DNA of 64,000 nucleotides from a virus (lineage: Duplodnaviria; Heunggongvirae; Uroviricota; Caudoviricetes): the IMG/VR virus record IMGVR_UViG_3300019487_000021, one strand, 5' to 3'. This document shows positions 4,318 to 60,879 of the stretch, one piece after another. A model generated the notes under the pieces. That model ran no database searches. It was not told where the DNA came from and saw nothing but the letters and a program-made list of their open reading frames with translations. Both the position numbers and the translations under genes were made by a program. Position 1 is the stretch's first letter. Each line of letters begins with the position of its first letter.

Positions 4318-4923
4318 ATGTTGCAATACCCAAGTATACCAAGCTGGCGATACGTCGAACACGGACGACCATGCACAGCGTTTTACAAGTATGACGGATC
4401 GAATCTTCGATTCGAGTGGTCGTGGAAGCGTGGTTGGTACAAGTTCGGCACACGGACACAAATGATGGATGAAAACACACCGATTTATGGTGCGGCAATT
4501 CCTTTGTTCAAACAAACGATGGCTGAGTGGATCGCTCAGCGCTGTCAACATACTTTTGGTAAGAAGCTGGAACGCATCGTTGCGTTTGCAGAGTGGTTTG
4601 GACCATCAAGCTTTGCCGGTTGGCATGATGAGAATGAGAAGAAGCAACTCGTTCTCCTTGATGTGTCAATCTTCAAGAAAGGTGTTCTACCACCAGATCA
4701 GTTCTTGAAGTTCTTCGAGCGGGCAGATTTTTGCCCGAAAGTGATCTACAAGGGTGTGATGGATCAGCGGTTCATCGACAACGTTCGTGAGGGTCGGTAT
4801 CCAGTGTACGAAGGAGTTGTGTGCAAAGGAGTCGATTGGAACGCAAAAATCAAAACGGTCGAGTATCTCGACCGTTTGAAGAAGGAAAACACTGAAGCGT
4901 GGGAATTGATGAAGGACGAGTAA
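4318..4923 (+). CDS. small ATP-dependent RNA/DNA ligase (nucleotidyltransferase domain)
   Basis: Motif I FYKYDGSN (KxDG) and motif IV/V-like EGVVCKG. Confidence 0.55.
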   Translation: MLQYPSIPSWRYVEHGRPCTAFYKYDGSNLRFEWSWKRGWYKFGTRTQMMDENTPIYGAAIPLFKQTMAEWIAQRCQHTFGKKLERIVAFAEWFGPSSFAGWHDENEKKQLVLLDVSIFKKGVLPPDQFLKFFERADFCPKVIYKGVMDQRFIDNVREGRYPVYEGVVCKGVDWNAKIKTVEYLDRLKKENTEAWELMKDE

Positions 4924-5181
4924 TTACGCTTTGTCACCAATCTTTTCGAGATGGGCCTGAATCTTAGCAAGACCACGGCGAACACGAGAACGGTGCTTTT
5001 CACGCTCTTTCGGGTCCTTCAGCTTTTTAACAATCTGGAGGGCCCGTTTTGCTGCATCGAGCATTTTCTCGACATGCTCCTGACTTGCACCGGCCGGGAT
5101 CTCAACAGCTTCGTCAAGGATCGACAAATCGTCGTTTTTCTGGCCAAGTCCAGCAAGTTTTCTCATCTCGTTGATGTTCAT
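4924..5181 (-). CDS. hypothetical protein
   Basis: Minus-strand ORF with AGAGGA RBS; the overlapping plus ORF lacks signals. Confidence 0.5.
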   Translation of the reverse strand: MNINEMRKLAGLGQKNDDLSILDEAVEIPAGASQEHVEKMLDAAKRALQIVKKLKDPKEREKHRSRVRRGLAKIQAHLEKIGDKA

Positions 5182-5237
5182 TTCAGAATCCTCTAAGGTT
5201 GATGGGTATTTATGACCTATTGACTATTGGGACTAAA

Positions 5238-5630
5238 TACACAAAAGGAGGACATATGAAATACCTTCTGTTACTGTTGATTCTAGTTGTCACATCGAGC
5301 TTTGCCGGCGGCCCGTCAGAAGAATGTAGTATCTATGGCCGACTTGCTGGTGTAACAATGATGCACAAGAACAAAGCACGATGCCACGATTCTGAAGATG
5401 TGCAGAAATGTCAAGAACAATCTCGTCAGTATGTCACTTCATCCCTTCGAGAATTCCTGCAAGGAGAGCAACATTCAGAACAACTAATTACTAAGTTAGT
5501 TGAGTTTGTTGGAAGAGTGCACGACACGGAAGTTGATATGCTACCACGACACGCAGACGAGAAGTACTTTTTCGAGTGTTTTGATCGTTTTATTAAAGAA
5601 CGTGACCGAGAGCCAAACAAATCAAAGTGA
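5238..5630 (+). CDS. secreted hypothetical protein
   Basis: RBS AAAGGAGGAC; signal peptide MKYLLLLLILVVTSSFA. Confidence 0.5.
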   Translation, partial: YTKGGHMKYLLLLLILVVTSSFAGGPSEECSIYGRLAGVTMMHKNKARCHDSEDVQKCQEQSRQYVTSSLREFLQGEQHSEQLITKLVEFVGRVHDTEVDMLPRHADEKYFFECFDRFIKERDREPNKSK

Positions 5631-5690
5631 TCCTGGTAATTGGTCGGAATTTGGCAACAAACAACCCGGTAAGTTCTGTAGGAGATTTAC

Positions 5691-6182
5691 ATGAAAAGAT
5701 TACTCGTGCTATTGGTGTTTTCACCTACACTAGCTCTTGCTGATCATTGCCCAGTCCTAACAGGCACATACACGTGTCCAATGCAAGATCCCGACACAGG
5801 AGAAATCACGACGATTCTTGTGAAGATTACAACTGATGATCACAAATACACTGTCGTCCTTGGTGATGACCAGCCAGTTGAGTTTACGGACGGACATTCC
5901 GTTTCCGACATGGTGCCTGCTTCAGAAGGTGTGTACAGCTTGTATACTCGTTATTCCTGTACAGCTGACAAGAAGCTGGAAGTAAACTACCGCAATGCAT
6001 GGTACCACGATGGTCGGCCATACGAAGGTGAAGTTCCAACGTTTGAAGAGACGATGCAACAGTTTTATTCGCTTGACGAACAAGGCAATCTTGCTGAGTC
6101 CACGACACGGCAGCGCACTCAGCTTGGACGACAGGTCGGTCCACCGAAGTCAAAGTTTCGTATATGTGCTAAACAACAATAA
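5691..6182 (+). CDS. secreted hypothetical protein
   Basis: Signal peptide MKRLLVLLVFSPTLALA. Confidence 0.5.
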   Translation: MKRLLVLLVFSPTLALADHCPVLTGTYTCPMQDPDTGEITTILVKITTDDHKYTVVLGDDQPVEFTDGHSVSDMVPASEGVYSLYTRYSCTADKKLEVNYRNAWYHDGRPYEGEVPTFEETMQQFYSLDEQGNLAESTTRQRTQLGRQVGPPKSKFRICAKQQ

Positions 6183-6329
6183 CACTATATGATCAATGGT
6201 AGTCGGCGCTGGAGCGCGGCGGTGTCTTATAAACACTGGAGATCGGCTAGATTGGCTGGAACGGGAGGGATCGTAACCCTCGGCTACTACCAACGAATAT
6301 AGTGATAGAACCATATAATAAGGATATAA

Positions 6330-7400
6330 ATGATTTACCACAAGAACGTTGCGGTGATTGGTTACGGCCGAATCGGCCAAGCCATCAAACAATATCTCAA
6401 GCAAGAAGGCTTCAACGTAATGGCTTACGACGCGAAGCCAGTCGAAGGCGCAACGATTCTTGGTAAAGATGGCGACGGCCAGATCGACTATAAACCTGCT
6501 GTAAGCAACGCCGATTGTGTAATCGCTGCAACACCATTTTCTTCGAACATCTACATTGCTCACCAATGTCTTGAACATCAAAAAGCGTACTTTGATCTTA
6601 CTGAAGACGTGCTGATTGCACAGTTCATTCGTGACGACTCAATTCCGTATGTACGAGCAGGCAAGTTGGCTTGGATCTCTCCTCAGTGTGGACTTGCACC
6701 AGGAGCTGTTGGCATGGTTGCAAATCACTTAATTGATACATTTCAGGAAATTCGCGACGTTCGACTACGAGTCGGTGCTTTACCGCAGTTCGCCTCGAAC
6801 AAAATGAAGTACTACCTGACATGGTCAAGTGAAGGCCTTGTGAACGAATACTGCAACCCATGTCGAGTGTTGGTTGACGGAATCGAGTATGACGTTCCTG
6901 CATTGGACGGTTATGAACTGATTCAAATTGACGGTGATGAATACGAAGCATTTAACACCTCTGGTGGAATTGGATCACTAATTGAAACCGTTACGCGAAA
7001 TCATCCGAGTGTTCGAAATATCAACTACAAAACCCTTCGATATAAAGGCCACCGTGAGTTGCTAAGCTTCGCGCTTGACGATCTTGGTCTACGAAATAAC
7101 CAAAAGGTGCTTGTTGATCTATTCAATGCTAACGTTCCTCGGACAACGAGCGACTTTGTAGTAATCTACGTAGAAGTGACAGGCGTCAAGGACGGGTTGC
7201 TGAAAACCGAAACTTACAGCCGTAAGATTTACGGCGATGATAAGTTTACAGCAATCCAACGAACGACCGCTGCTGGTGTTTGCGCAATGGTTTATTATTG
7301 GGCCACGAGCAGTTATCCCCAACGAAACGGATACGTTCCTTGTGAAGATGTTGCAGTCACATCTCTCAACGGCAACCCGTTTTGGGACATCTTTCGTTGA
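6330..7400 (+). CDS. saccharopine-dehydrogenase-like NAD(P)-binding oxidoreductase (possible carboxy(nor)spermidine dehydrogenase or homospermidine synthase)
   Basis: N-terminal Rossmann VAVIGYGRIGQAI; the polyamine link is inferred only from the SpeD neighbour. Confidence 0.45.
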   Translation: MIYHKNVAVIGYGRIGQAIKQYLKQEGFNVMAYDAKPVEGATILGKDGDGQIDYKPAVSNADCVIAATPFSSNIYIAHQCLEHQKAYFDLTEDVLIAQFIRDDSIPYVRAGKLAWISPQCGLAPGAVGMVANHLIDTFQEIRDVRLRVGALPQFASNKMKYYLTWSSEGLVNEYCNPCRVLVDGIEYDVPALDGYELIQIDGDEYEAFNTSGGIGSLIETVTRNHPSVRNINYKTLRYKGHRELLSFALDDLGLRNNQKVLVDLFNANVPRTTSDFVVIYVEVTGVKDGLLKTETYSRKIYGDDKFTAIQRTTAAGVCAMVYYWATSSYPQRNGYVPCEDVAVTSLNGNPFWDIFR

Positions 7401-7459
7401 CCGATGATTAGGTATAGGGTACAATGTAGTTTCCTGTGACTCCTCTTTTAGGTGTAATC

Positions 7460-7927
7460 ATGTTTCGAGCTCTCATTCTCGCTCTACTGATCACGATTGC
7501 CGCTCCTGTGAATGCCGTTGATCTGACGGTTGATCTCGGAAAAGGTTGGATGCAACCTGACTCTGCGCGAATTGGCCTGTCATTTCCGGTCAAGTCATGG
7601 TTGAATCTCGAAACTGGCGTTCTCGGAACGAACGATGGTACTATCGTCGACGTAACGCCGATGCTTCACTATGGCAAGCGGTGGTATGTGGAAGGCGGGA
7701 TCGGTCTGTCACTCGCAACCGCCCGTGACCTTGGTGAGCTCGATCAGTCATCGTACTTGAACTTCCGAGATGTTCTTGGAGTTGGCTATCACTTCCCCAA
7801 CGGCAAATGGACGGCCGGCGTTCGATACGTTCATTACAGCAATGGTGGACGACTTAACCCGATTTTCGGAACGGACGATAATCACGGCTACGACTGGTTC
7901 GTCCTACACGTTCGTTACAAGTTCTGA
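7460..7927 (+). CDS. outer-membrane beta-barrel protein (PagL / acyloxyacyl-hydrolase-like)
   Basis: Signal peptide, alternating beta-strand pattern, HYSNG motif, terminal aromatic (YKF). Confidence 0.35.
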   Translation: MFRALILALLITIAAPVNAVDLTVDLGKGWMQPDSARIGLSFPVKSWLNLETGVLGTNDGTIVDVTPMLHYGKRWYVEGGIGLSLATARDLGELDQSSYLNFRDVLGVGYHFPNGKWTAGVRYVHYSNGGRLNPIFGTDDNHGYDWFVLHVRYKF

Positions 7928-7959
7928 GTTGTTTTACCCACATCAGCATTGTATACTGA

Positions 7960-7990
7960 GTGAACCCCCTTTATTGATAAAGGGGTTCAC
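7960..7990. repeat. near-perfect 14-bp inverted repeat (GTGAACCCCCTTTAT / ATAAAGGGGTTCAC)
   Basis: Read directly in the intergenic region between 7927 and 8006. Confidence 0.6.
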
Positions 7991-8005
7991 TGTTGGAGAA
8001 AAACA

Positions 8006-9593: not shown

Positions 9594-9637
9594 TGCAGTA
9601 CCATAATAACTTAACCCTCTCACAAGGAGATGCGAAA

Positions 9638-11370
9638 ATGTCAAAGCTCAACGCTCAGGGCAAGCGCCCAGTAAAGTCTACGTCTAACCATCGTTACGTA
9701 GCACCAGGAGTCCGTCACGTTCCTGTCGAAACTACTCTTGCTATTCCGGTAACGGAAACCGTCAGTGGAACAAAGAACCACTGCAGCACCTGTACGAACT
9801 TGCCGTGTCAACACTACTTGGTAAGGACACGTTCTACCGCACTAGCGACACACTTGTAAAGAATATGAAGACCAAGCTGAATGAAGCCGTTTCCATGGGT
9901 GCGTTTGACTTCGTTGCAAACGTTGCAATCCACGCTCGTGTGCAGATGGGCATCCGCTCACTGCCGATCATGTTGGTTGTCGAATTTGCAAAGATCCTCG
10001 CTGACTATCGTGCTCCGTACACGCAACAGCTGAACGACCTCCGTACACAACTCGCAAAGGCTCGCAGCGTAGCCAAAAAGCTTGAACTTGGTGACGAGAT
10101 TGCTCGTGTTCAGGCAATTGCGGAATCGTTCAACTACGAGAACATGCGCCGTTTGGTGTGTGATGTAATTCAGCGCGCCGACCAGATCACTGACCTCTAC
10201 GCTTATGCCCTTGAAGTGTTCGGTGGTAAGGGCAAGGTGCCGATGGCTGTGAAGCGTGGTGTAGCTGATGCTTTCAACAAGTTCAACGAATATCACTTCG
10301 GCAAGTACGACCGTGCTGGCTCGGTGAAATTCCGTGATGTACTGCGCATTGTTCATCCAACAGCTAAAAACGAGAAGCAAGGCGTGTTGTTTGAAAAGAT
10401 CATGAAGGAAACTCTAGCTACTCCGTACACTTGGGAAACCGAGCTTTCGAAGAATGGCCAGCTTCCGAAGGAAGAACGCCGTTCCGAGGCTCAAGTGTGG
10501 ACAGACTTGCTGGAGTCAGGCAAGCTTGGTTACATGGCTCTTCGTTCGAACGTTCGTAATATCATCAAGGCTGGTGTTGATGATGAAGTGATCGGTGTAT
10601 ACGTTGCAAGTGTGTTGGCTGATCCGAAGCGAGTTGTAGAAAGCAAGCAGTTCCCATTCAGCTTCATCCAGGCCCGCAATGCGATCCAGGAGGTTGGTGG
10701 TAACACGAAGATCCGTAACGCACTGGACAAGGCACTTGAGCTTTCATGCCGCAACATCCCAATGTTGGGCAAGAAGCTTGCTCTGATCATCGACAAGTCG
10801 GGATCGATGGTACAAGGCGTTTCAACGATGCCAGGCTTCACTCCGTTCGACCAGGCTGTAACACTAGCTGCAATGGTCGTAAAGGCACATGCAGATGCTG
10901 ATGACCTTGCCGTAATCGTGTTTGGTTCGGCCGCCGAAACACTAACAGACATCAACCCGAATGACAGCATCAACTCAATCGCGAACCGTATTCGCCAGTC
11001 AAAGGCTGGCGGTGGTACTCAATTCGATGTTGCGTTGCACGCGTTGAACCAGCTGGGATTCAAACCAGATGCCGTGCTTGTTATGACGGACGGTGAAATC
11101 AACAAGCTGTGGATCCAAGGCACGCGCCAGCTGGCTAGCATTCCATCGAGCACGTTGAAAGTTGTTGTCAACTTCCAGGCAGCAAACACAACTCCATTCC
11201 CAATCCGTGAAGGTTGGTATCCGATTGCAGGTTGGTCGGACAAGGTGTTCAAGTGGATTCCTGCGATCCACCAGAAAGTGACAGTTGTGGATGCGCTGTG
11301 TGCTCCATATGCGGGTGCAGAAGCAATGAAGGCTGCAATTCGCGCTGAAGCTGAAGAAACAGAAGAGTAA
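9638..11370 (+). CDS. rsr: Ro60/Rsr orthologue (TROVE plus vWA domains) with an apparent -1 frameshift near 9770-9800
   Basis: KFRDVLRIVHPTAKN matches the Ro60 motif SHKDLLRLSHLKPSS. vWA MIDAS LALIIDKSGSM...GGGTQ. RBS AAGGAG at ATG 9638 (frame 2); the body is in frame 1 from 9688 and has no ATG of its own. Confidence 0.7.
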
Positions 11371-12066: not shown

Positions 12067-12543
12067 ATGGCCAAAGAGATTGAACGCAAATTCCTCGTCG
12101 ATAAAAAAGCTTGGAGACAAGCAAAAGACAACATCGTTCGTTCATATGTGATGACGCAGGGGTATCTTTCAAAGGCTCCGACCCATAATGTTCGTGTTCG
12201 TGTTTATCCTCACAAAGCCGAACTGACAATCAAAGGAAAGATGGTTGGCATTACACGTCCAGAATTCAATTACGAAATACCTGTCTCTGACGGTGATGAG
12301 CTATTAAAGATGTGTGATACAACCGTTAAAAAGACGCGACATTTTATCCAAATCGGTGATCATACGTGGACGGTCGACGAATTTTTTGGCGTGAATAAAG
12401 GTTTGCTTTTGGCTGAGATTGAACTGTCCGCAGAAAACGAGAAGTTTGAGCTGCCAGGGTGGATTAGTATGGAGGTAACCTACGATAGACGTTACACAAA
12501 CGCTTACTTAACCGCCCACAAAGTTGCTCATTCTCCGTCTTGA
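12067..12543 (+). CDS. CYTH-domain protein (class IV adenylyl cyclase / triphosphatase family)
   Basis: N-terminal EIERKFLV signature. Confidence 0.6.
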   Translation: MAKEIERKFLVDKKAWRQAKDNIVRSYVMTQGYLSKAPTHNVRVRVYPHKAELTIKGKMVGITRPEFNYEIPVSDGDELLKMCDTTVKKTRHFIQIGDHTWTVDEFFGVNKGLLLAEIELSAENEKFELPGWISMEVTYDRRYTNAYLTAHKVAHSPS

Positions 12544-17326: not shown

Positions 17327-17614
17327 ATGAGCACTTTCGCAGTCAAAGCTACTCGCATTCGTTCTATCGAGCCGATCGAAGGCGCCGACATGATTGAACT
17401 TGCTGTTGTCGGTGATTACCGTTCTGTGGTTCGGAAAGGTGATTACAAATCCGGTCAACTTGCTGTCTACATCCCTGAAGGGGCTGTACTACCTGAGTGG
17501 CTTATTGAGCGAATGGGCCTTACTGGCAAACTCGCAGGCAAACAAAAGAATCGTGTCAAGGCTGTTCGTCTTCGTGGTTGCTTGTCACAAGGTCTACTGT
17601 ATCCAGTCGATTGA
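17327..17614 (+). CDS. RNA-ligase N-terminal OB-like domain protein (Rnl5/DraRnl-family N-domain)
   Basis: 95-aa ORF whose stop overlaps the downstream ATG by one base (TGATG). Confidence 0.5.
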   Translation: MSTFAVKATRIRSIEPIEGADMIELAVVGDYRSVVRKGDYKSGQLAVYIPEGAVLPEWLIERMGLTGKLAGKQKNRVKAVRLRGCLSQGLLYPVD

Positions 17615-18492
17615 TGGCAGGACAAACGGCACATGACTATGAAGTTCCAACGGTTGCAACTCTCGACAATCGGGTTCTTGCAACGGAGGACAAAGACGTC
17701 GCCGAAGCTCTCGGCATTATCAAGTACGAGCCACCGATTCCTGCTTACATGAGCGGTGAAGTATATGCTGCTGGTCTCGATGTCACTGTCAAATATGACA
17801 TTGACAACTTCAAGGCTTTCCCGGACGTACTTGTCGATGGGGAACAAGTATCGTTTACGGAAAAACTTCATGGTACATTCTGCGGCATTGGCATTCTGCC
17901 GACTAGCCACTGGGATGACAAACACGTTCGTCGGAAGTTCGTTGTGTTCAGCAAAGGTCTTGGTGGTCAAGGGCATTGTTTCAAAGACACTGAACGTAAC
18001 TGGGGCAACGTATACTTTCGTGCGCTTACGGCTTCTGGCGTTTTCGAAAGACTCGAGACTCTAGTTGATCCTGCAGAAGAGTTCGACGATAAATTCTGGA
18101 ATACGCCAGTGTTTATTCTTGGCGAAGTCTACGGTAAGGGCATTCAGGATCTGGCCTACGGGATGAACGACATCAAGTTTCGAGTGTTTGACATCGCTTA
18201 CGGATATCGGAGTGAACTGAAATATGTCTGCCCGAAGTACATGCGTTTTGTTTGTGAGAATTTTGGCCTTGATTCTGTTCCAGTTCTTTACGAAGGCCCC
18301 TTCAGCAAGGAAGTCATGCTGCAGCATACAAAGGGGTGGGAGACTGTGTCAGGTGGGTCGGCGAATATTCGTGAAGGGATCGTTATTCGACCCACCCAGG
18401 AACGGTACGATCCAACTCTTGGTCGAGTGATCCTGAAAAGTGTAAGCGATGATTACTTGCTGCGCAAGGGCGAGATTACGGAGTACCAATGA
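17614..18492 (+). CDS. ATP-dependent RNA ligase nucleotidyltransferase domain (Rnl2/Rnl5-like)
   Basis: Motif I FTEKLHGT (KxHG). Confidence 0.6.
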   Translation: MAGQTAHDYEVPTVATLDNRVLATEDKDVAEALGIIKYEPPIPAYMSGEVYAAGLDVTVKYDIDNFKAFPDVLVDGEQVSFTEKLHGTFCGIGILPTSHWDDKHVRRKFVVFSKGLGGQGHCFKDTERNWGNVYFRALTASGVFERLETLVDPAEEFDDKFWNTPVFILGEVYGKGIQDLAYGMNDIKFRVFDIAYGYRSELKYVCPKYMRFVCENFGLDSVPVLYEGPFSKEVMLQHTKGWETVSGGSANIREGIVIRPTQERYDPTLGRVILKSVSDDYLLRKGEITEYQ

Positions 18493-33352: not shown

Positions 33353-34168
33353 GTGGATCTCATCAACCCTGTAGAGTACGACGCCGTCGTAAACAAGTTA
33401 CGCACATTCTTTCGTGAGCGTTCATTCCTCGAAGTTCCTGTCCAGCACCGATTGAGTATCCTTGCGGCCTGTGAAGATCCACGAACCATCGGCACGTTCA
33501 GCTACGCAGGTGCGATGTGGCCGCTTCCACAGACTGGTCAGATGTGGTTAGAGTATGAACTACTTCACAATCCGTCCGCTAAAGGTTTTTACTGCATCAG
33601 CACCAGTTACCGCAATGAGCCAAATCCAATTCCTGGACGGCACGATTTGATCTTTCCGATGTTTGAATTCGAGACGCGAGGACAGCTAGAGGATCTCGAG
33701 CAACTTGAAATCGAACTGATCGCATATCTTGGTATTGCAAGACCCAGCGCCGTGCAGCGACTTGAGTATGCAAGAATTGCGGAATATTACAACACACAGA
33801 TTCTAACTGCTGAGCACGAGATCGAGATGCAGAGGGACTTTGGCCCTGCGATCTTACTCAAGAACTTCCCGCAGTACACGTCACCTTTCTGGAACATGCG
33901 AAAGGTCGGTGACAAAGCCAATAAGATTGACGTTCTACTGTACGGAATGGAAACAATCGGCTCTGCGGAGCGTAGTACCGACCCCGACGAGATGCGACAC
34001 TTGTTCCACACAATCTCCGATGGCATGTACGCAGACATTCTGTATTCACAGTTTGGCAAGGCACGGGTTGAGAAGGAACTCGAGGAATTTCTCTCGTTCG
34101 ACTTCTTCCCTAGATTCGGCGGTGGAATAGGTGTAACACGAATGATTCGTGCAATGAGGGCTGCTTGA
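33353..34168 (+). CDS. class II aminoacyl-tRNA-synthetase catalytic-core paralogue (EpmA/PoxA- or AsnA-like)
   Basis: Motif 2 YRNEPNPIPGRHDLIFPMFEFE; motif 3 FGGGIGVTRMIRAM; 271 aa with no anticodon-binding domain. Confidence 0.5.
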   Translation: MDLINPVEYDAVVNKLRTFFRERSFLEVPVQHRLSILAACEDPRTIGTFSYAGAMWPLPQTGQMWLEYELLHNPSAKGFYCISTSYRNEPNPIPGRHDLIFPMFEFETRGQLEDLEQLEIELIAYLGIARPSAVQRLEYARIAEYYNTQILTAEHEIEMQRDFGPAILLKNFPQYTSPFWNMRKVGDKANKIDVLLYGMETIGSAERSTDPDEMRHLFHTISDGMYADILYSQFGKARVEKELEEFLSFDFFPRFGGGIGVTRMIRAMRAA

Positions 34169-46111: not shown

Positions 46112-46372
46112 ATGAAATTGTTCAAAGTTTCCAAAGATGTTCCGGGTCGTTTGATCAATTCACAAGACAAAACGGAAAGGCCGTTTCTTACCCGACGCGA
46201 GTTCATCTTTGGACGCGAGGATATTGCCCTCGATCCTGTGACTGTGTACAATCAATCTCGTACGGTGATTCATGAGTACGGGTTTGTTTACGGCACTCCT
46301 GAACAACGTGAAAAGTATGTGCTGATCATTCCAGCACAGTTCGTTGAGATGATCCTTCCCGAGGACGACTGA
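46112..46372 (+). CDS. hypothetical protein
   Basis: ORF, ATGA overlap with cca. Confidence 0.4.
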
Positions 46373-47412
46373 TGAAAGTTTATCAAGTTGGTGGTTGCGT
46401 CCGAGACCGATTGCTCGGCCGAACACCCAAAGACATCGACTACGTTGTGGTCGGCTCCACACCTGAAGAAATGCTCGCATTGGGGTTTCAACAGGTCGGT
46501 GCATCATTCCCAGTCTTTCTAAAAGATGGCAGTGAATACGCACTAGCTCGTACCGAACGCAAAACTGGTGTTGGTTACACTGGTTTCACAACAAGTCACG
46601 ATCCTTCCGTTACGTTGGAGGAAGACCTCCGCCGTCGCGACTTGACAATTAACTCCATGGCGTGGGACGAAGAGACGAACGCGTTGATTGATCCGTTCTT
46701 GGGCCAAGTAGACCTAGAGATGAAGGTGCTGCGTCATACGAGCAAAGCGTTTGCCGAAGATCCAGTTCGCGTGTTGCGTACAGCACGATTTGCTGCACGA
46801 TACAATTTCCAAATCTTTGCAGACACGCAGGAAATGATGGCTGCAGTTGCGCATGAACTCGATTACGTTCCTCAAGAACGGATTTGGGCTGAAATTGAAA
46901 AGGGTCTAATGGAGCGTTATCCGGACAATATGTTCCTGTGGCTCAAACACTGTAAGGTGTTCGATAAGTGTGGCGCACTTAAGCCATATGCTTCATTCGA
47001 TTGCGTACGACTAGCAAATGCTGTTGATGCTGATCTCGTTACACGATTCGTATTCGTTTCTGTTAATTTTACCGCGGACGATTACGCGATTTGTCGTGTG
47101 CCGACTGAACCGGCGGAAGTCGCACAAATGTTCCACAGCAACTTCAGTAGCTTTGAAAAGTACTTGTCGTTCAACACATCAAAGTGTTTGGATCTGTTGT
47201 ACAAGATGCGTGCATTCAGTGGCGGCAGCAAGACGTTTCTCAAGTGTATGGAAGTTTTGAGTCATTATCCGGAGCTTGAGATGCAACGCTCAATGCTTCT
47301 TGCAGATTACAACAACGCAAAGAACATTGACACAGCTGCAATCGCCGCGAAACACACTAGCGGTACTCAGATCAAGGAAGCGATCTATTTTGCACGATTG
47401 GCTGAACTTTAG
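46372..47412 (+). CDS. cca: tRNA nucleotidyltransferase (CCA-adding enzyme, head domain)
   Basis: [21 protein letters not shown] (GGxVRD...DxD) plus downstream RRDLTIN. Confidence 0.75.
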
Positions 47413-53069: not shown

Positions 53070-53141
53070 GGGTTCATGATGTAACGGCTAGCATAGGAGG
53101 CTTTTACCCTCTCTGTCAGAGTTCGAATCTCTGTGAACCTA
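53070..53141 (+). tRNA. tRNA-Lys (anticodon UUU)
   Basis: Acceptor GGGTTCA/TGAACCT, D-arm ATGT..GCAT, anticodon arm GGAGG-CTTTTAC-CCTCT, T-arm CAGAG-TTCGAAT-CTCTG. Confidence 0.8.
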
Positions 53142-53487
53142 CTTAGGATTTTACAGAATGACAAGTTTACTTGGTTCCACGACTAACCAAACATTAAACT
53201 GTCTTAGCCTTAGCAACCAAGTCACATGCGGCACAGCCGCCCCCCAGAAGGTCAAGTTACTTGGTGGACCAAATCGATGTTGTAATCGATGTATTATTAC
53301 CTTGTGCATAGTCGGTGACGTAATAGAAGCGCCATATTGACCACCCAAGTGACCACCCAAGGTATGATGGTCGAGCGGAAGGTGAAGATAATCAGCGAGA
53401 TCTGCTGCGAAGTCACCGAGACTATCCAAATCACCTAGGTCGTTTGTAATTTCGAAAAGTTTCATGTAGTTATTTAGTGTTCTTTGT

Positions 53488-53550
53488 TCCGGGAGAGGCG
53501 TCGTGGTGACAGCCGCGATGACGGTGGTTCAAATCCAGCCGCCAGGACCA
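53488..53550 (+). pseudogene. degenerate tRNA paralogue (cannot form an acceptor stem)
   Basis: Shares GGGAGAGGCG with the adjacent tRNA-Asn and has the T-loop-like GGTGGTTCAAATCCAGCC, but no complementary 3' acceptor strand. Confidence 0.45.
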
Positions 53551-53552
53551 AT

Positions 53553-53630
53553 TGTGGGAGAGGCGCCAGGGTGGCAACCGCTCCGCTGTTAACGGAGACT
53601 AGACAGGTTCGATTCCTGTTCCCACAGCCA
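53553..53630 (+). tRNA. tRNA-Asn (anticodon GUU), irregular D region
   Basis: Acceptor TGTGGGA/TCCCACA, anticodon arm CTCCG-CTGTTAA-CGGAG, T-arm ACAGG-TTCGATT-CCTGT, G plus CCA. Confidence 0.65.
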
Positions 53631-53812
53631 TATTTTATGGCTCCTAATTTCAATAGGAGCCATATTGGAGTACGAAGACAGGTCGAAAACGAAAGTATCA
53701 TGGGAATATTTATAAGAGCCTATGCTCGCGGCCCATTGATACTTCGCGTTGTGGTTGCCGACTGCAGGTTTGTTCACATTCATGAGTGGCTCCTTGAAGA
53801 ACGCACCTTACC

Positions 53813-54052
53813 CTAGTTATCTTGATTTGGCAACTTGAATGAGATATCGTATGATGCAAACGAAGCACGAATCCGCTCCAGCGCCTCGGAGGGCCAGTCT
53901 TTTGTTGCTTGTTCCAAAGCGATGGCTAGCCGGGCTAACTTAAGCCCACTGCACCTTGCTTTCTCTATCTCGTTTTGAATGCAATTCGGATGGTTGCACT
54001 CACGGATATTGTTGACGGCAGTAGCGATCAGCACGTCGAACCATCTTTCCAT
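53813..54052 (-). CDS. small hypothetical protein
   Basis: Minus-strand ATG preceded by GGGAGGTGTCG. Confidence 0.45.
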   Translation of the reverse strand: MERWFDVLIATAVNNIRECNHPNCIQNEIEKARCSGLKLARLAIALEQATKDWPSEALERIRASFASYDISFKLPNQDN

Positions 54053-54087
54053 CGACACCTCCCGCGGAAACCCACGAGAGGTATTTA

Positions 54088-54180
54088 GGGTTATTCTTCG
54101 GAATCGCGATAAAGAGCATCGAACGTTTTGTCGTCGAACGTTTAATCAGGTTGATCAGGGTTCGAGTCCCTGGCGACCCA
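54088..54180 (+). ncRNA. tRNA-like remnant (T-arm plus acceptor-like 3' end; 5' part does not fold)
   Basis: CAGGG-TTCGAGT-CCCTG then GCGACCC-A. Candidate 5' strand GGGTTAT lies 93 nt upstream. Internal direct repeats CGAACGTTT x2 and ATCAGG x2. Confidence 0.3.
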
Positions 54181-54279
54181 CAACTCGAGGAGATGCAATA
54201 AATAATGATATGATACTCCAAGAAATTTTCCAACAAATCAGTGATGTGTGGGCTAATTGGAAACGTAAGTGTCCGTTTT

Positions 54280-54351
54280 GCTCCAACGGCGCAGAGGAAG
54301 CGCACTCGCTTGGTAAGCGAGCGGTCCTAAGTTCGAGTCTTAGTTGGAGCA
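54280..54351 (+). tRNA. tRNA-Thr (anticodon GGU)
   Basis: GCTCCAA/TTGGAGC, D GCGC..GCGC, CTCGC-TTGGTAA-GCGAG, CTAAG-TTCGAGT-CTTAG. Confidence 0.75.
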
Positions 54352-54445
54352 CATACAATGCTTGGATAGTTCAGTCTGCTTTACTGCCCCCTGGGTTTGG
54401 TTGGATTGATACGTTTTTCACCTCACCCGCGGAGCAAAGATTTAT

Positions 54446-54522
54446 CCTAGAGTAGTTCAGCCTGGCAGAACGCTCGCCCGATTAGCGAGATGTCGGTGGT
54501 TCAAATCCATCCTCTAGGACCA
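54446..54522 (+). tRNA. tRNA with anticodon loop CCGAUUA (GAU/Ile if canonical positions; C33 unusual)
   Basis: CCTAGAG/CTCTAGG, D GTTC..GAAC, CTCGC-CCGATTA-GCGAG, GGTGG-TTCAAAT-CCATC, A plus CCA. Confidence 0.6.
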
Positions 54523-54531
54523 AGATTCAAT

Positions 54532-54604
54532 TGTTCCGTATTTTAATTGGCAGACTGCATGCTTGATAGGCGTGTCGGTGTAGGTTCGAGTCCTACCGGA
54601 ACAA
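54532..54604 (+). tRNA. tRNA, anticodon loop UUGAUAG (GAU/Ile?), irregular D-arm
   Basis: TGTTCCG/CGGAACA, CATGC-TTGATAG-GCGTG, GTAGG-TTCGAGT-CCTAC. Confidence 0.5.
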
Positions 54605-54722
54605 CATAAATACAAGTTTATGGTAGTGAAAATTTTGTAAAGGAAATTCTCAAGATGTTTGGATGGACACTACAGGTGGTCCGAGATCACGAAGCTCGGC
54701 ATCGGCAAGAACATCCACCAAC

Positions 54723-54796
54723 GGACCGCAAGCATTAAGGTGATGCAGTAGGCTCTTAACCTACAGAACACGGGCCAGTACCGTGGCGGTCTACCA
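54723..54796 (+). tRNA. tRNA-Lys (anticodon CUU) with a non-canonical T-loop GCCAGUA
   Basis: GGACCGC/GCGGTCT, D GCAT..ATGC, GTAGG-CTCTTAA-CCTAC, CACGG-GCCAGTA-CCGTG, A plus CCA. Confidence 0.6.
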
Positions 54797-54804
54797 AAAT
54801 TCTT

Positions 54805-54879
54805 GCTTCGTAAACTTTGACGGTGAAGCCCACTCCTGTAAAGTGGCGGAAGTAGGTTCGAATCCTACACGGAGCTCCA
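54805..54879 (+). tRNA. tRNA-Thr (anticodon UGU; C33)
   Basis: GCTTCGT/ACGGAGC, CCACT-CCTGTAA-AGTGG, GTAGG-TTCGAAT-CCTAC, T plus CCA. Confidence 0.6.
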
Positions 54880-54979
54880 AGTTGTTGCGAAGGACACTAC
54901 GGTTACTTCATTCACTTTGCGTAATGGCTGGAGGCGGAAGCCTCCGTTTCCGTATCCGACTTTTAACTCAACTTTGATT

Positions 54980-55057
54980 GGGGCATTAGCTCAGCTTTGG
55001 GAGAGCGCTACGTTTGCACCGTAGAGGTCGTCGGTTCGATCCCGACATGCTCCACCA
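54980..55057 (+). tRNA. tRNA-Ala (anticodon UGC)
   Basis: GGGGCAT/ATGCTCC, D GCTC..GAGC, CTACG-TTTGCAC-CGTAG, GTCGG-TTCGATC-CCGAC, A plus CCA. Confidence 0.8.
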
Positions 55058-55572
55058 ATCTAAACAAGGAGACGACCATGCTTAAGGAAGGAGTTTGCAG
55101 CAATTTGTGACTAACACAGATGAATCTGGTCGTTTCATGTGATGTTGGACGAAGTAACTATGTGTGGGATAATGTTTCATTTTGGAGAATGAACCATGTA
55201 TAACCAATGTGTATCATTGCTTTTGTGCTTGTTCGGTTCATCAGTAGCACGCTATTGCTGTGTCACTGGATGACAGAGAAAGGATGGCTTAAACCATCGT
55301 AACATCTCAACGAACTGGTCGTAGATAGTCGTAGATACTCGTAGATACTCAATTCGTAAAAGTGAAGCCTGGATCTTTCTCGACAAGAAAGACACGGGCT
55401 ACATCTTTTGTGACGAGACGGACAACTTCCCACGAGCGCTTGTGGTTGATCTTGCCCACACTCTGTTTCACATGATACGAAAGGATAATCGTTTCAATGA
55501 ACCTGATGATGTTTTGAGAGCACTTGCTCGTGCTCGTTTGCAAGATCAAGCTGTAAACATCATCGACAATTT

Positions 55573-55646
55573 GCTCCCATAGTTCAGTGGTAGAATGCGA
55601 TCTTGGTAGGATTGAGACACAGGTTTGATTCCTGTTAGGAGCACCA
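55573..55646 (+). tRNA. tRNA-Thr (anticodon GGU), second copy
   Basis: GCTCCCA/TAGGAGC (one mismatch), CGATC-TTGGTAG-GATTG, ACAGG-TTTGATT-CCTGT, A plus CCA. Confidence 0.6.
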
Positions 55647-55810
55647 TGAAAGTAATCGAGCCAGGCCACGTGTATGAACTCCAACACCTTGAGAGTGAAG
55701 GCGTTGAACGTTTGACGTTTATCAAACGATCGTCAGGTGCAGTTGACTATGGCGATCAAGAAGTGAATACGAAATTGAACTTCTTCCGACTGGTCGGGAC
55801 GGACATGTGA
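55646..55810 (+). CDS. small hypothetical protein (54 aa)
   Basis: ATG overlaps the tRNA CCA end; RBS AGGAG lies inside the tRNA 3' end. Confidence 0.35.
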   Translation: MKVIEPGHVYELQHLESEGVERLTFIKRSSGAVDYGDQEVNTKLNFFRLVGTDM

Positions 55811-55814
55811 TTGT

Positions 55815-56030
55815 ATGACACTCAAAGAAAAGATTGCAATGTACGAGGGGCTGCTTCACGACATCCAAATGTATCGTGAGGTTACGCTTGACGGCGAGAA
55901 AGTGAAACAGCTGCTCGATAACATTGGCGCTTGGAGTTACGCGCATCGTGTTGGCAATGGAATGCTAACAGATCGCCAACAGAAGCGGTTGATTACTGCT
56001 AAGTTCAAAAAGTTGCGAGAAGTGACCTAA
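55815..56030 (+). CDS. hypothetical protein
   Basis: ORF. Confidence 0.4.
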   Translation: MTLKEKIAMYEGLLHDIQMYREVTLDGEKVKQLLDNIGAWSYAHRVGNGMLTDRQQKRLITAKFKKLREVT

Positions 56031-56059
56031 GTGATTTTTCCACGATAGAGGTATCGAAA

Positions 56060-56410
56060 ATGGCAAAGTTTAACCGCAGTAAGATTCAGGTGTATCAGTA
56101 TGATCATCTTTCAACATCAGATTTTGAGAGCATCTCTCTGGATGATATGATCGCAAAGTTGCAGAAGCTTCGCGATAGGCATGGCGGCGAAGGTAGGTTC
56201 AATCTTGAGATTGAGTATTACGACAACACCGACGTCAAAATTGAGGTGTCATCCTATCGAGAAGAAACAGACGAGGAACTCTTGCATCGCGTGACGGTGC
56301 ACAAGGCTTTAGAAAAGCACAAGCGTGATGATGCGAAGGCGCGTAAGGCCTTCCGTGAGGAACACGATCGTAAGGAATTTGAGCGTCTTTCGAAGAAGTT
56401 CGGAAAATAA
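56060..56410 (+). CDS. hypothetical protein
   Basis: RBS GAGGTATCGAAA. Confidence 0.45.
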   Translation: MAKFNRSKIQVYQYDHLSTSDFESISLDDMIAKLQKLRDRHGGEGRFNLEIEYYDNTDVKIEVSSYREETDEELLHRVTVHKALEKHKRDDAKARKAFREEHDRKEFERLSKKFGK

Positions 56411-56415
56411 TTAAC

Positions 56416-56489
56416 GGGTCTGTGATGTAATGGTAGCCTGCGGCTCTTACAAGGCTGATGCGACAGTTCGATTCTGTCCGGACCTACCA
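56416..56489 (+). tRNA. tRNA-Val (anticodon UAC), irregular D-arm
   Basis: GGGTCTG/CGGACCT (two GU pairs), CGGCT-CTTACAA-GGCTG, GACAG-TTCGATT-CTGTC, A plus CCA. Confidence 0.5.
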
Positions 56490-56499
56490 TGGAGGTTGT

Positions 56500-56652
56500 A
56501 TGCGCGATGACCGAGACTTTCCTTTGCTACTCACTTGCTGGGATCTGAATCAGCAGCGCGAAGTAGATTACGTGCCGTACATACGGTGGTGTTCCCACAT
56601 CATTCTCTTTGTCGGCAACCAGTGGTACCGTCTGGACAAATCTGCTCTGTAG
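56500..56652 (+). CDS. small hypothetical protein
   Basis: RBS GGAGG. Confidence 0.35.
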   Translation: MRDDRDFPLLLTCWDLNQQREVDYVPYIRWCSHIILFVGNQWYRLDKSAL

Positions 56653-56653
56653 T

Positions 56654-56727
56654 GCCCCTTTAGTTTAGTGGTAGAACACAACTCTCGTAAAGTTGGGACG
56701 TCAGTTCGATTCTGACATGGGGCTCCA
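56654..56727 (+). tRNA. tRNA-Thr (anticodon CGU)
   Basis: GCCCCTT/ATGGGGC (one mismatch), GTTT..GAAC, CAACT-CTCGTAA-AGTTG, GTCAG-TTCGATT-CTGAC, T plus CCA. Confidence 0.65.
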
Positions 56728-57995: not shown

Positions 57996-58744
57996 ACATA
58001 ACGTACGCTTTACAGCCTCTACCAAAGTCAATCTTCTTGGCAGGTCCGACGCCGAGAAGTGAAGATATTACTTCATGGCGTCCTATAATCTTCATCTTCG
58101 GCGGCGTTGCCAACGCAGGTGTCGAGGGAACGTCGTACTTCAAATGTTAGAGCGAGACGGGGCTAAAAATGAAAGAGATGTGGCTAAATGAAAGAGATGT
58201 GGGAAATCTTAGTGCCGACGCTTCACGCAAACGGGAAGCCGATTAAGACCCGCTATCACAAAGTGTGGGATAAGAAAGTGATTGAGATCACTGGCGGTCT
58301 CACTGTGTTAACAGTTGAGGAGCCTGACCTGTGAAGCGTGTGACATTTGCAAAGAACGGCCCAGGAGTAGTCTTTCATGTATGGGAAGTGGATAATGAAA
58401 GACCAACTGTCTGGCGAGATGGTGATCGGTACCACTTCAACTCAGAATTGATAGGCGTGTACAACTTTACTCATAGAGACCTTGCCGGCTTGTTACAAGG
58501 GGTTAAATGATCGTTCCCGAACGAGCACTTGTTCAAGTGGTCAGCAGCATTCATCAGTAGCTCGGCAGTAGAGCAGGAACTTAATTTATGACGAATCGTG
58601 AACGGATTATAATTTCATGTACTATGTTGTGGTCTTTTCACAACAGCATTGGTATAAAAACATGAAGTTCGTATCGATTCAGATCATTCAACGTCGGTCT
58701 GCTAAGCCTCCTGATGTGCCGGTTGAAATCATCAAGGGGTGATA

Positions 58745-59541
58745 ATGCAGAACGTTGCCGATACACTTACCTCCAAGTACACTTGGAACAAGTTTACTTT
58801 TGATGCCACTCCAGGAACGCCGTTGTGGCGGTTCCGGTATCTGATCTCATGCATCATCGTGGGAGGTAACAATGAAGCTGACACTCTTCGGTGTGATAAA
58901 GAACTGTTTACGCGCTATCCGACTGTGGAGGCGCTTGCCGCAGCAAAATTTCGAGACCTCGCTGACCTCCTTGAAAAGTACGATCTCCAATATGCGGGAA
59001 ATAAAGCCAAGCATATTATTGACACCAGCAGCAAGATCGCTGTACTGGGCGATGTTCCGGACAACCGCGATGCTTTGGAGTGTCTTCCCGGTGTTGTCGT
59101 CACGTTGCTTCTGTCATTCTGGCTACTTGTTTCGGCCAAGACGAGTTTGCTGTGGATATTCACGTCCGTCGCATTGCTAAGCGGATTGGCCTCGTTGACG
59201 AGGATGCTACTGATCGCGCGATTGAAAAAGCAGTGCGCGCAGCTGTACAACCAGATCAATACGGACATTTCAGTAGGTCGTTCGTCGACTTCGGACAAAC
59301 GATCTGTGGCTTCCGCCCCAAATGCGGATCATGTTCGTTGACCCAAACTTGCAAATCGGTGACAGTGTCAACTCGTGACCGATTTGCGCTAACAACTGAC
59401 GCTAAGGCTGGCGCCTATTCGATAGGACAGTACATGATCACCGTTGCAGATGGTTATGCCAAATGCAATTGTATGGCAGGCAAACATGGTCGCAACTGCC
59501 GCCATGTGAAACAAATCGTAACAGGAGAACAGACATGCTGA
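58745..59541 (+). CDS. nth: endonuclease III (HhH-GPD DNA glycosylase with 4Fe-4S cluster) with an apparent -1 frameshift near 59095
   Basis: Frame 2 gives ...DVPDNRDALECLPGV. Frame 1 continues CRHVASVILATCFGQDEFAVDIHVRRIAKRIGL...CGFRPKCGSCSLTQTC. Confidence 0.6.
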
Positions 59542-59720
59542 AATGGATTGCACTGACGGAAGACGAACTGAAACTCGTCACAGACCATATGGGCTACAAC
59601 GAGGAAAGTCTCGTTGACATGCTCCATTATTCTCACAACAACACCGCTCGCGAGAATGCTGCATACCGGGATGAACTCACGCTGACTCGTGGTGTGAAAA
59701 ACAAGTTGGAGAGCGCGTGA
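59536..59720 (+). CDS. small hypothetical protein
   Basis: ATG overlapping the nth stop. Confidence 0.35.
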
Positions 59721-59769
59721 TGCTCTACATCATCCGAGATAAAGTCACTGATCAAACACCAAGCCAACT

Positions 59770-60879
59770 ATGAACATACGTCAAAAACAGCTGTGGGACA
59801 ACCTGTTAGCCCTAACGAAGGCTAACGAGGTGTTCTACCATCAGGAATTCACCCTTGATGGCAAACGGTATTGGATTTTCAACTATCGCTTGGCTTCCTA
59901 TACCGACTTCCTTCAACCCGACGCGTTGGAGTGTCGTGGGCATATGTTCGAAGTTGATCAAAATGATCAACCGGTCCGCCTGGCGGCCTGGCCATGTGAA
60001 AAGTTCTTCAACTTGAACGAAAATCCTTTGACGATTGGCCTTGATCTTACAAAGGTTGTTCGCATCGAGGACAAAGTTGATGGATCGTTGATGTCTACGT
60101 ACATCCACGATGGTGTGCTTCGTCTCAAGTCGCGCGGTTCGTTGTTCTCCGACCAGGCGCTTGCAGCAATGCGCTTTTTGGAAACTGATCGACTTTTGTG
60201 GGAAATGTTGTATAATATCACCGACAAAGGCTATACGGTTAACCTCGAGTGGTGTGCACCCGAACATCGGATTGTAATTGGTTATCCACAAGCTCACTTA
60301 CGTGTGTTGAATGTTCGTTCGACAGCAGATGGCACGTATCAAGATCTGTCACAAGTACCACAGATGAAGAATTACTGGGTACCTATACATGATGTTGTTG
60401 ATCCTGTTGTATTTGTTGCTTCGATCAAGGATATGACTGGTGTCGAGGGTTATGTTGTAACTCTTGAGGGCGGTCTGCGCGTAAAAATCAAGTGCGAATG
60501 GTACATGTCTCTTCATCACACAAAGGATTCAATCAACAATCCACGTCGATTGTTTGAGTCAATCTTAGATGAAGCGATCGACGACCTACGCGCGATGTTC
60601 TACGACGACGTTGTTGCAATGCAAATGATCGACGAGATGGAAAAGAAAGTCGATCAGGTGTATAATGGTATGGTCAACATGGTCGAAGGCTACTACGCTG
60701 AGAACAAGCACTTGTCTCGCAAAGACTATGCTATCAAGGCGCAAACGCATTTCAAGGACACGTTGTATTTTGGACTTGCAATGGGAAAGTACATAGGCCG
60801 CGCTTTCTCGTATAAAACATTCCTTAAATCCAAATGGCGTGATCTGGGTTTGAAGGACACCTCTCTGGAGGAATTATAA
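59770..60879 (+). CDS. T4 Rnl1-like ATP-dependent RNA ligase (tRNA-repair type)
   Basis: Motif I RIEDKVDGSL (KxDGS); 369 aa like T4 Rnl1. Confidence 0.6.
   Translation: MNIRQKQLWDNLLALTKANEVFYHQEFTLDGKRYWIFNYRLASYTDFLQPDALECRGHMFEVDQNDQPVRLAAWPCEKFFNLNENPLTIGLDLTKVVRIEDKVDGSLMSTYIHDGVLRLKSRGSLFSDQALAAMRFLETDRLLWEMLYNITDKGYTVNLEWCAPEHRIVIGYPQAHLRVLNVRSTADGTYQDLSQVPQMKNYWVPIHDVVDPVVFVASIKDMTGVEGYVVTLEGGLRVKIKCEWYMSLHHTKDSINNPRRLFESILDEAIDDLRAMFYDDVVAMQMIDEMEKKVDQVYNGMVNMVEGYYAENKHLSRKDYAIKAQTHFKDTLYFGLAMGKYIGRAFSYKTFLKSKWRDLGLKDTSLEEL

Follow-up and report, generated by a model that had tools for sequence, protein, structure and literature searches.

A conserved in-frame stop codon in a phage release-factor gene, and the RNA-ligase and translation genes dispersed around it

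The subject of this study is a 64,000-nucleotide stretch of a tailed-phage genome (Caudoviricetes; IMG/VR record IMGVR_UViG_3300019487_000021), called the window throughout, and in particular a release-factor gene within it that is interrupted by an in-frame TGA, a feature shared by all 77 distinct genes of its main subfamily described below. The next gene downstream encodes a small ligase-like protein that consists of a nucleotidyltransferase domain only and is termed the mini-ligase. Almost all window genes lie on the + strand, and the G+C content is 44-48%. The features at the release-factor locus are the following.

2874..3071, + strand: 5' remnant of a release-factor gene, 66 codons long, carrying an in-frame TGA at 2979-2981 (translation and homology)
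3074..3547, - strand: HNH/endonuclease VII-type homing endonuclease gene (phrog_1035, E=6.7e-28; several HNH PHROGs; weak match to Pfam HNH_5)
3618..4313, + strand: RF1-like release factor, domains 2-4 only, with PPT loop, GGQ and terminal TAA (prfA profile)
4318..4923, + strand: mini-ligase, 201 amino acids (aa), nucleotidyltransferase domain only (motifs and predicted fold)

The gene at 3618-4313 was matched by the prfA profile over positions 104-332 with 184 bits, continuously across the TGA, whereas RF2 scored 96 bits. The lack of domain 1 keeps its score under the cutoff of 400 set for full-length proteins; the GGQ motif is present, and the PPT tripeptide and its flanking RVPPTERKGRVHTS are kept as in RF1. 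An earlier first-pass annotation had called this gene a release factor without domain 1, which the profile positions bear out, and had also likened the gene set to RtcB-PrfH ribosome-repair operons. The latter comparison fails for the factor itself, whose score with the PrfH model TIGR03072 was 37 bits (cutoff 167), over the GGQ domain only. Judged by these matches, the protein is classed as RF1-like and not PrfH-like, with a stop-codon-reading loop of the PxT type retained. Under the tripeptide rule, which Ito et al. reportedly formulated in 2000, such a PPT loop suggests reading of UAA and UAG.

The internal TGA of the window gene occupies positions 3738-3740 and is also present in an independently assembled sibling contig (L005; loci are numbered with the prefix L). 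The sample comprised 69 distinct genes from 80 IMG/VR loci and, in a wider census, 77 distinct genes, with 385 gene stretches in IMG/VR; the main-group loci are L090-L168, L002, L008-L011, L014, L016, L021, L027, L083, and L088. Exactly one in-frame TGA is found in every gene (69/69 of the distinct IMG/VR genes and 77/77 in the wider census). It follows codon 35 in 73 of the 77, the site of a conserved Trp in cellular RF1, while in the window copy it lies 4 codons downstream of a Trp codon that has been retained. The codon preceding the TGA is nearly always GGC or GGT, an A stands directly 3' of it in 58/77 genes, and the final stop is TAA in 74/77. When the genes are compared over the 35 codons that precede the TGA, most differences are at the third codon position (50132, against 21079 and 14735 at the other two), and these codons are therefore translated. 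A conserved early in-frame stop with translated sequence on both sides, as in prfB-type control, thus characterizes all 77 genes. Elsewhere in this phage TGA is a normal stop, terminating 10 of the 24 domain-supported window genes (about 40%). Many "full-length" proteins of the family in databases are code-4 translations that conceal the TGA, and the internal stop explains why automated gene calling breaks these genes up or translates them wrongly.

At the same protein position, a sister subfamily of four genes (L026:10974, L032:8473, L036:9436, L039:9440) carries GGAGG-GGT-CTT-TGA, after which the frame continues at +1; TAG takes the place of TGA in the L026 cassette. The full set of prfB-type elements, comprising a Shine-Dalgarno-like element, a 3-nt spacer, CUU-UGA, and a +1 shift, was found in L026, L032, L036, and L039 only, and the window gene has the same-frame TGA rather than the +1 cassette. 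The phage family and prfB, the gene of RF2, therefore share an early in-frame stop and, in this one subfamily, also GGAGG, the 3 nt, and CUU-UGA (PMC12421855). They differ in that most phage genes would, from their sequence, use same-frame readthrough, in that the phage site lies in domain 2 at the conserved Trp of a protein without domain 1, and in that the phage factor looks RF1-type and might fail to recognise the UGA proposed to control it.

Among 1412 tRNAs in 172 related loci, none has a UCA anticodon, and for this reason leaky reading of UGA-A by tRNA-Trp, with RF2 as its competitor, would be the most economical route to the full-length factor. UGA followed by A is said to be a leaky context, a finding credited to Engelberg-Kulka in 1981. 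The level of the phage factor would increase as UGA termination, or host RF2 activity, weakens, so that its control would resemble that of prfB while operating through readthrough. The internal stop is read here as termination-sensitive control of a phage release factor, a reading that draws on comparison of sequences. If it is correct, the factor is made only upon failed UGA termination, and the family offers a widespread natural case with readthrough and frameshift versions at one site, as well as a simple, reporter-testable system for studying how phages sense or manipulate host termination. The more specific proposal is that the obligatory UGA, or the convergent prfB-like +1 cassette of the sister group, acts as a phage sensor of host termination capacity that, in some members of the family, is coupled to a nucleotidyltransferase-only RNA ligase; it is put forward tentatively, as a distinct possibility about which doubt slightly exceeds conviction. 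Predicted promoters and terminators near the release factor and mini-ligase were no more numerous than in shuffled sequence.

A different account would make the gene part of a code switch, in which UGA comes to encode Trp late in infection and an RF1-like gene with an internal UGA belongs to the switch, comparable to the "code change modules" known from recoded gut phages. The internal TGA does usually stand in for the conserved Trp codon, RF1 has been found in TGA-recoded phages (Borges et al., bioRxiv 10.1101/2021.08.26.457843), and gene callers translate many of these genes with code 4. This account is nevertheless considered very improbable: it finds no UCA-anticodon tRNA in the related loci, it conflicts with the domain-supported window genes that end in TGA, no recoded genes are apparent in the window, and the window TGA stands past a Trp codon that is still there. 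In the recoded phages of that study, moreover, the release-factor genes are written in standard code, whereas here a standard-code phage has a stop inside its release-factor gene. Reassignment of the stop across the window was considered separately and rejected, as reading TGA as sense extends open reading frames (ORFs) equally on both strands and TGA ends the 10 supported genes. Amber-reading tRNAs with a CUA anticodon are present in the arrays of related phages (L020, L030, L035, L037, L062, L072, L073, L149, and L150), among which a UUA-anticodon tRNA occurs in L030 only.

Upstream of the window gene, the remnant translates as MKFIVEIHAAEGGDD...RKG, the TGA, and TARIVLDVADEIRVEVTGQDLAQLMNEPGG, after which homology is lost immediately ahead of the codons for the best-conserved loop. 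The HNH/endonuclease VII gene begins on the opposite strand 2 nt after the end of the remnant (3071), and the two are probably the scar left when a homing endonuclease caused the 5' part of the gene to be replaced. A 35-nt portion of the release-factor gene (3777-3811, coding IVFEVTGNVDML) recurs at 57209-57243 with 34/35 identity, between the tRNA array and the Rnl1 gene described below, and there is no similarity outside the repeat.

The mini-ligase gene starts 4 nt past the release-factor stop, and the two are the only adjacent pair among the window's RNA-repair and translation genes. The protein has no match in a Pfam scan, yet the small KxDG ligase that had been noted at 4318 is well founded: it contains K24 in KYDGSN, E92, E165-G-V, K170, K177, and K179, and the catalytic residues are invariant in 34 sequences. 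More than 1000 homologues are known, each about 200 aa long (family range 195-221 aa), including members in huge phages, Xanthomonas phage XacN1, and Lak phages. An AlphaFold2 model (pLDDT 92.8) shows a single nucleotidyltransferase domain, whose best 23 PDB fold matches in Foldseek are all nucleotidyltransferase domains of RNA ligases; TbREL1, T4 Rnl1, NgrRnl, and T4 Rnl2 were matched at E=1e-6 to 2e-4, and DNA ligases appear only above E=1e-3. In the six defined RNA-ligase families, Rnl1-Rnl6, the nucleotidyltransferase domain is always joined to a characteristic flanking domain, which is C-terminal in Rnl1-4 and Rnl6 and an N-terminal OB domain in Rnl5 (PMC7261155). The mini-ligase shares motifs I, III, IV, and V and the ligase fold with these ATP-dependent families but has no flanking domain of any kind. 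On its predicted structure, it is placed as a ligase-like enzyme outside the defined families, representing a large uncharacterised phage family. This putative enzyme would be the smallest ligase-fold enzyme of RNA-ligase type, and, as it is often encoded inside tRNA arrays, it is a candidate for an enzyme directed at tRNA and may also serve as a compact tool. A second small nucleotidyltransferase, DNA-ligase-like and 218 aa long, is encoded ~1.6 kb past the 3' end of the window (L174:13489-14145; KKNGT motif; PF01068, 28 bits), and BLASTP found no similarity between it and the mini-ligase.

Two further ligases are encoded in the window, one of them in two ORFs.

17327..17614, + strand: OB-domain ORF of a split Rnl5, 95 aa (PF21189, E=5.5e-16; TIGR02306 positions 7-94)
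17614..18492, + strand: nucleotidyltransferase ORF of the split Rnl5, 292 aa, with KLHG as motif I (TIGR02306 positions 94-341, 150 bits; PF09414)
59770..60879, + strand: T4 Rnl1-family RNA ligase with the Rnl1 C-terminal domain (TIGR02308, Pfam, PDB)

The product of 59770-60879 is a full member of the Rnl1 (T4 RnlA) family, as had been proposed: it scores 319 bits with TIGR02308 (cutoff 242), matches RNA_lig_T4_1 (PF09511) and T4_Rnl1_C (PF20819), and aligns with T4 Rnl1 (PDB 2c5u) at E=2e-70 over residues 6-344, where its KvDGS corresponds to the KeDGS of T4 and so supplies the motif I lysine. The split gene at 17327 and 17614 is assigned by sequence to the DRB0094/DraRnl family, i.e. Rnl5, again in agreement with the original call, having the N-terminal OB domain followed by the nucleotidyltransferase that typify DraRnl and NgrRnl. 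TIGR02306 gives 94 and 150 bits over its two ORFs (cutoff 151) and breaks exactly at profile position 94; a PDB sequence search with the nucleotidyltransferase ORF gave no match. The two domains are not on one polypeptide here, whereas nearly all of the other 119 listed Rnl5 homologues are fused (359-404 aa). At the junction, TGATG combines the stop (17612-17614) with the next ATG (17614-17616) in a different frame, within the variable stretch that links the domains. An identical 292-aa ORF is recorded from a JGI contig (P0121), the split in that sibling assembly being known from the length of P0121 alone. Because of this second record and the position in a variable linker, the break appears to be a real split or a lineage-specific frameshift and not a private error of this sequence. 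Profiles for these two, and the predicted fold for the mini-ligase, thus class all three enzymes with RNA ligases and not with DNA ligases or capping enzymes, so that one outcome named in the first-pass annotation as a refutation did not arise. They had been described as three unrelated ATP-dependent RNA ligases, of which the RNA-ligase type stands on profiles and fold; they are three families within one nucleotidyltransferase superfamily, and "unrelated" has to be dropped.

The remaining RNA-related features of the window are listed next.

85..159, + strand: tRNA-Ile(GAU) with encoded CCA (ARAGORN; Rfam, 63 bits)
6198..6292, + strand: 95-nt tRNA-like gene with UAU anticodon and a long extra arm (ARAGORN only)
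9638..11370, + strand: Ro60-like TROVE + vWA protein, frameshifted in the window (TROVE PF05731, E=3e-23; VWA_2 PF13519, E=1e-13)
12067..12543, + strand: CYTH (triphosphate tunnel) protein (Pfam CYTH, E=2.9e-12)
33353..34168, + strand: class IIb aminoacyl-tRNA-synthetase catalytic core without anticodon-binding domain (Pfam tRNA-synt_2, E=2e-12)
46372..47412, + strand: class II tRNA nucleotidyltransferase (CCA-adding type), head and neck, without HD domain (PolyA_pol and PolyA_pol_RNAbd)
53070..56727, + strand: tRNA array with Lys, Asn, Thr x3, Ile x2, Ala, and Val, plus an Rfam-only tRNA at 54805-54876 (ARAGORN, Rfam)

The nucleotidyltransferase at 46372-47412 matches phrog_2244 (E=4e-94) and, over positions 1-203, the E. 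coli Cca profile with 295 bits, against 101 bits for PcnB; its class II domains and its greater closeness to Cca are in keeping with the CCA-adding enzyme reported earlier, its specificity being predicted. The window tRNAs number 11 by ARAGORN, 10 by Rfam, and 12 in union, somewhat fewer than the approximately 13 first counted, and 3 of the 10 Rfam tRNAs (starts 53070, 54280, and 54532) lack an encoded CCA. The Ro60 gene reported at 9638 does start there and combines TROVE and vWA domains as in Ro60/Rsr, but its frame is broken in the window by the absence of one G near 9740. The intact 577-aa gene is present in the sibling contigs L005, L006, and L007, and the N-terminus MSKLN is common to the homologue in L002. 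A partner Y RNA was sought with Rfam in 5900-12200 with no match at E<=1, and divergent Y RNAs could escape such a search. CYTH genes are repeatedly found near Ro60 in relatives, downstream of TROVE in L002 and L083.

As for the origin of this DNA, GenBank phages include no close DNA relative of the window, and an IMG/VR pattern search with a single protein gave no match. Judged by proteins, the phages in culture nearest to it are the jumbo phages Xoo-sp13 of Xanthomonas, 2.275.O of Vibrio, and CM1 of Stenotrophomonas, with genomes of 300-350 kb. A 351,809-bp metagenomic contig encodes products identical to those of the window (P0002, P0241), and sibling contigs in JGI, ENA, and Logan assemblies share 99.9% identity with it. 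These relationships therefore indicate that the window is a portion of an uncultured, environmental jumbo phage of ~350 kb. Compared with the sibling assemblies, it carries private single-G deletions at ~9740, in the Ro60-like gene, and at ~59096, in an HhH-GPD glycosylase gene, which break both genes and are likely assembly errors or a rare variant of the window copy.

In related phages, some of these genes lie closer together. Within 9 kb of L002, a 324-kb contig, are the release factor, the mini-ligase, PTH2, TROVE, and a fused Rnl5. A release factor is located within 10 kb of the mini-ligase in 17/82 mini-ligase loci; no other conserved neighbour of the mini-ligase is as frequent (11 loci), PTH2 being next (7 loci), and release factor and mini-ligase are adjacent in the diverged lineages L002, L036, L039, and L083. 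Flanking tRNAs occur in 34/60 mini-ligase loci and in 67/79 release-factor loci, 52 of the latter having five or more, with arrays of up to 39 tRNAs. In two related phages, transfer-messenger RNA (tmRNA) genes lie inside the tRNA arrays that flank the mini-ligase (L014:1270-1596 and L035:1575-1975). This clustering amounts to a loose "translation island" and not to an operon.

The interpretation towards which we lean, short of firm commitment, is that the window carries a loosely organised translation-maintenance set of a jumbo phage, being neither one operon nor a machine dedicated against anticodon nucleases. Its ligases would reseal nicked tRNA or rRNA that already bears 3'-OH and 5'-phosphate ends, Rnl1 acting on tRNA loops and Rnl5 on duplex nicks, while the nucleotidyltransferase would rebuild tRNA 3' ends and mature the 3 phage tRNAs without encoded CCA. 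The release factor would add termination capacity and would be made only when a ribosome reads through the internal UGA, most likely by means of tRNA-Trp. Several points weigh against this interpretation and its release-factor part. About 80 unrelated ORFs separate the genes, which extend across 56 kb. Seen from the release factor, its partners are infrequent: among the 80 loci the mini-ligase is found in 4, Rnl1 in 7, Rnl5 in 6, and PTH2 in 9, which, allowing for common descent, is near the frequency that chance could produce with single-copy genes in a genome of 350 kb. The factor is predicted to read UAA and UAG, and so not its own UGA, which means that the control would not be a simple copy of that of prfB; moreover, the factor may be a protein in two pieces instead of a readthrough product. 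Finally, Pfam and PHROGs searches of about 80 window ORFs, large unannotated ones included, gave no kinase, phosphatase, 2H, or HD domain, and typical nuclease damage is therefore not fully repairable with the visible genes. Anticodon nucleases leave 2',3'-cyclic-phosphate and 5'-OH ends, which, from the enzymology of T4 Pnkp and Rnl1, ATP-dependent ligases cannot seal.

Missing end healing bears most directly on the interpretation advanced in the first-pass annotation, that of a dedicated counter-defence kit against host anticodon nucleases or ribotoxins, in which the release factor and mini-ligase would correspond to PrfH-RtcB, with an ATP-dependent ligase, and Rnl1 to the T4 Rnl1/Pnkp system. 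Such a kit is consistent with the RNA-ligase type of all three ligases, the 4-nt gap between release factor and mini-ligase together with their adjacency in the four diverged lineages, the proximity of PTH2 and Ro60 in relatives, the 9-kb cluster of L002, and the tRNA arrays, and the concept is accepted for jumbo phages (PMC7824862). Like T4, which counters PrrC with Rnl1 and Pnkp, the phage has a full-length Rnl1 member, and a tRNA array with tRNA-Lys(UUU) among its members lies 3 kb from it. The annotation had itself observed, correctly, that no polynucleotide kinase-phosphatase is present in the window, and a 5'-kinase/3'-phosphatase partner is equally absent from the 10 kb downstream, where the only related gene is a generic Metallophos gene ~7 kb beyond the window; membership in the enzyme family is thus shown, and not the two-enzyme system. 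The metallophosphoesterase in question, calcineurin-like and 266 aa long (L174:18727-19527, ~6.8 kb past the 3' end of the window), is the only candidate 3'-end healer nearby.

The parallel with PrfH-RtcB is equally partial. As in that operon, a release-factor homologue without domain 1 stands directly upstream of an RNA ligase, an arrangement that recurs in some relatives. However, the phage factor fails the PrfH model and keeps its PxT-type loop for reading stop codons, the apparent control of its gene through a stop codon befits a true termination factor, the adjacency is limited to some lineages, and the ligase would be ATP-dependent and need 3'-OH/5'-phosphate ends, unlike RtcB. With the mini-ligase in only 4/80 release-factor loci as well, the counter-defence interpretation is weakened by the missing end-healing enzyme, the canonical release factor, and the weak linkage, and is considered unlikely, though deserving of serious attention. 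The coherence ascribed to the set was similarly an inference and not an observation: a loose recurrence with tRNA arrays in relatives remains, and the 56-kb spread speaks against anything tighter.

A purely capacity-based alternative holds that the phage takes over or boosts translation, with the ligases and Ro60 engaged in unrelated RNA processing and no repair of damage. Huge phages encode RF1/RF2, CCA-adding enzymes, synthetases, tmRNA, and Que genes, which Al-Shayeb et al. (2020, PMC7162821) interpret as translation support, and RF1/RF2, CCA enzymes, synthetases, tRNAs, and Que genes are likewise common to the present set and to huge and recoded phages (PMC7162821; bioRxiv 10.1101/2021.08.26.457843). 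The location of release factors inside tRNA arrays, the 3 tRNAs in need of CCA, and the Que genes of the window agree with it. It leaves unexplained, however, why three different nick-sealing enzymes are present and recur with PTH2 and Ro60 near tRNA arrays, and it runs counter to tRNA repair as the role of Rnl1 established in T4 biology, to our knowledge its only established biological role. For these reasons it is regarded as rather improbable.

Decay of the genes would make the common theme an accident, with the release-factor stop, the split Rnl5, and the frameshifted Ro60 as pseudogenes carried as cargo in a variable region. All three are indeed interrupted in this sequence, and homing endonucleases and an intein mark a region in flux. 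The TGA is nonetheless found in 77/77 relatives with codon-position evidence for upstream translation, the Ro60 break is a private 1-nt deletion not seen in three sibling contigs and is accompanied by a second such deletion at 59096, and the two Rnl5 ORFs meet in a clean overlap of stop and start (TGATG) within a variable linker. Decay is largely refuted for the release factor and Ro60, and as an explanation of the whole it is given hardly any credence, compared with the translation-maintenance reading favoured above.

Much of this set is familiar. The RNA-repair and ribosome-rescue complement was reportedly treated by Burroughs and Aravind in 2016, beside the work of Iyer et al. Jumbo-phage sets comprise tRNA arrays, ligases of Rnl1/Rnl2 type in any combination, TROVE, a CCA-adding enzyme, and PTH2, and have been read as counter-defence (Iyer et al. 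2021, PMC7824862). The same parts list is present in the window and its relatives, and jumbo phages ordinarily have ligases of the ATP-dependent kind (PMC7824862), so that construction from such ligases, earlier held to set this system apart, is no distinction. Two differences exist: the ligases there are paired with kinase-HAD, 2H, or cRec end healers, none of which is visible in the window, and phage release factors and a 200-aa ligase without flanking domains are not discussed there. Since counter-defence and translation-support readings have both been published for jumbo phages, the set is ordinary, being one more case of a catalogued gene complement that changes little. The conserved in-frame stop, its frameshift variant, and the 200-aa ligase family were not found in PMC7824862, PMC7162821, PMC6514570, PMC12421855, bioRxiv 10.1101/2021.08.26.457843, or full-text searches, which is not proof of novelty.

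Other window genes belong to several functional groups. Polyamine-type genes are suggested by an S-adenosylmethionine (AdoMet) decarboxylase, a saccharopine-dehydrogenase-like enzyme, and an amidinotransferase/DDAH-fold protein (1611-2129, 6330-7400, and 12991-13902). Genes for PagL (a lipid A deacylase) and an OmpA-domain protein lie side by side (7436-7927 and 8006-8644), pointing to a Gram-negative host and modification of the cell envelope. Nucleotide metabolism is represented by a GMP reductase/IMPDH-like enzyme, dCTP and dCMP deaminases, phosphoribosyltransferases, and NUDIX. A radical-SAM enzyme, probably QueE-like, is split by a Hint/intein domain (34645-36153) and, together with a PTPS/QueD-like gene (40712-41179), suggests the 7-deazaguanine pathway. 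Mobile-element-type genes on the - strand encode a GIY-YIG/NUMOD endonuclease and a DUF723/treble-clef zinc-finger protein (37626-38423 and 27356-27919).

The synthetase core at 33353-34168 had been called EpmA/LysRS-like, an assignment that could not be upheld. A single-sequence PDB search gave no match, and a five-sequence profile ranked AsnRS (5e-7) and AspRS (1e-5) well ahead of LysRS (0.5) and retrieved no EpmA entry; nor did any EpmA (GenX/PoxA) NCBIfam model match at E<=0.01. Homologues in cyanophages P-SSM2, P-SSM5, and P-SSM7 adjoin tRNA genes, including tRNA-Asn, and in P-SSM7 (L170) the AsnRS/AspRS-like core stands between tRNA-Leu and tRNA-Asn. The window copy lies ~480 nt upstream of the QueE-like gene. 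By analogy with GluQRS, it may be speculated that this core acts on queuosine-bearing tRNAs. Lastly, the 95-nt tRNA-like gene at 6198-6292 is not matched by the Rfam tRNA model at E<=1, and counterparts of 87-95 nt are present in five related loci (L002:460-547, L014:8352-8444, L048:6185-6279, L072:3912-4003, and L083:13092-13182).

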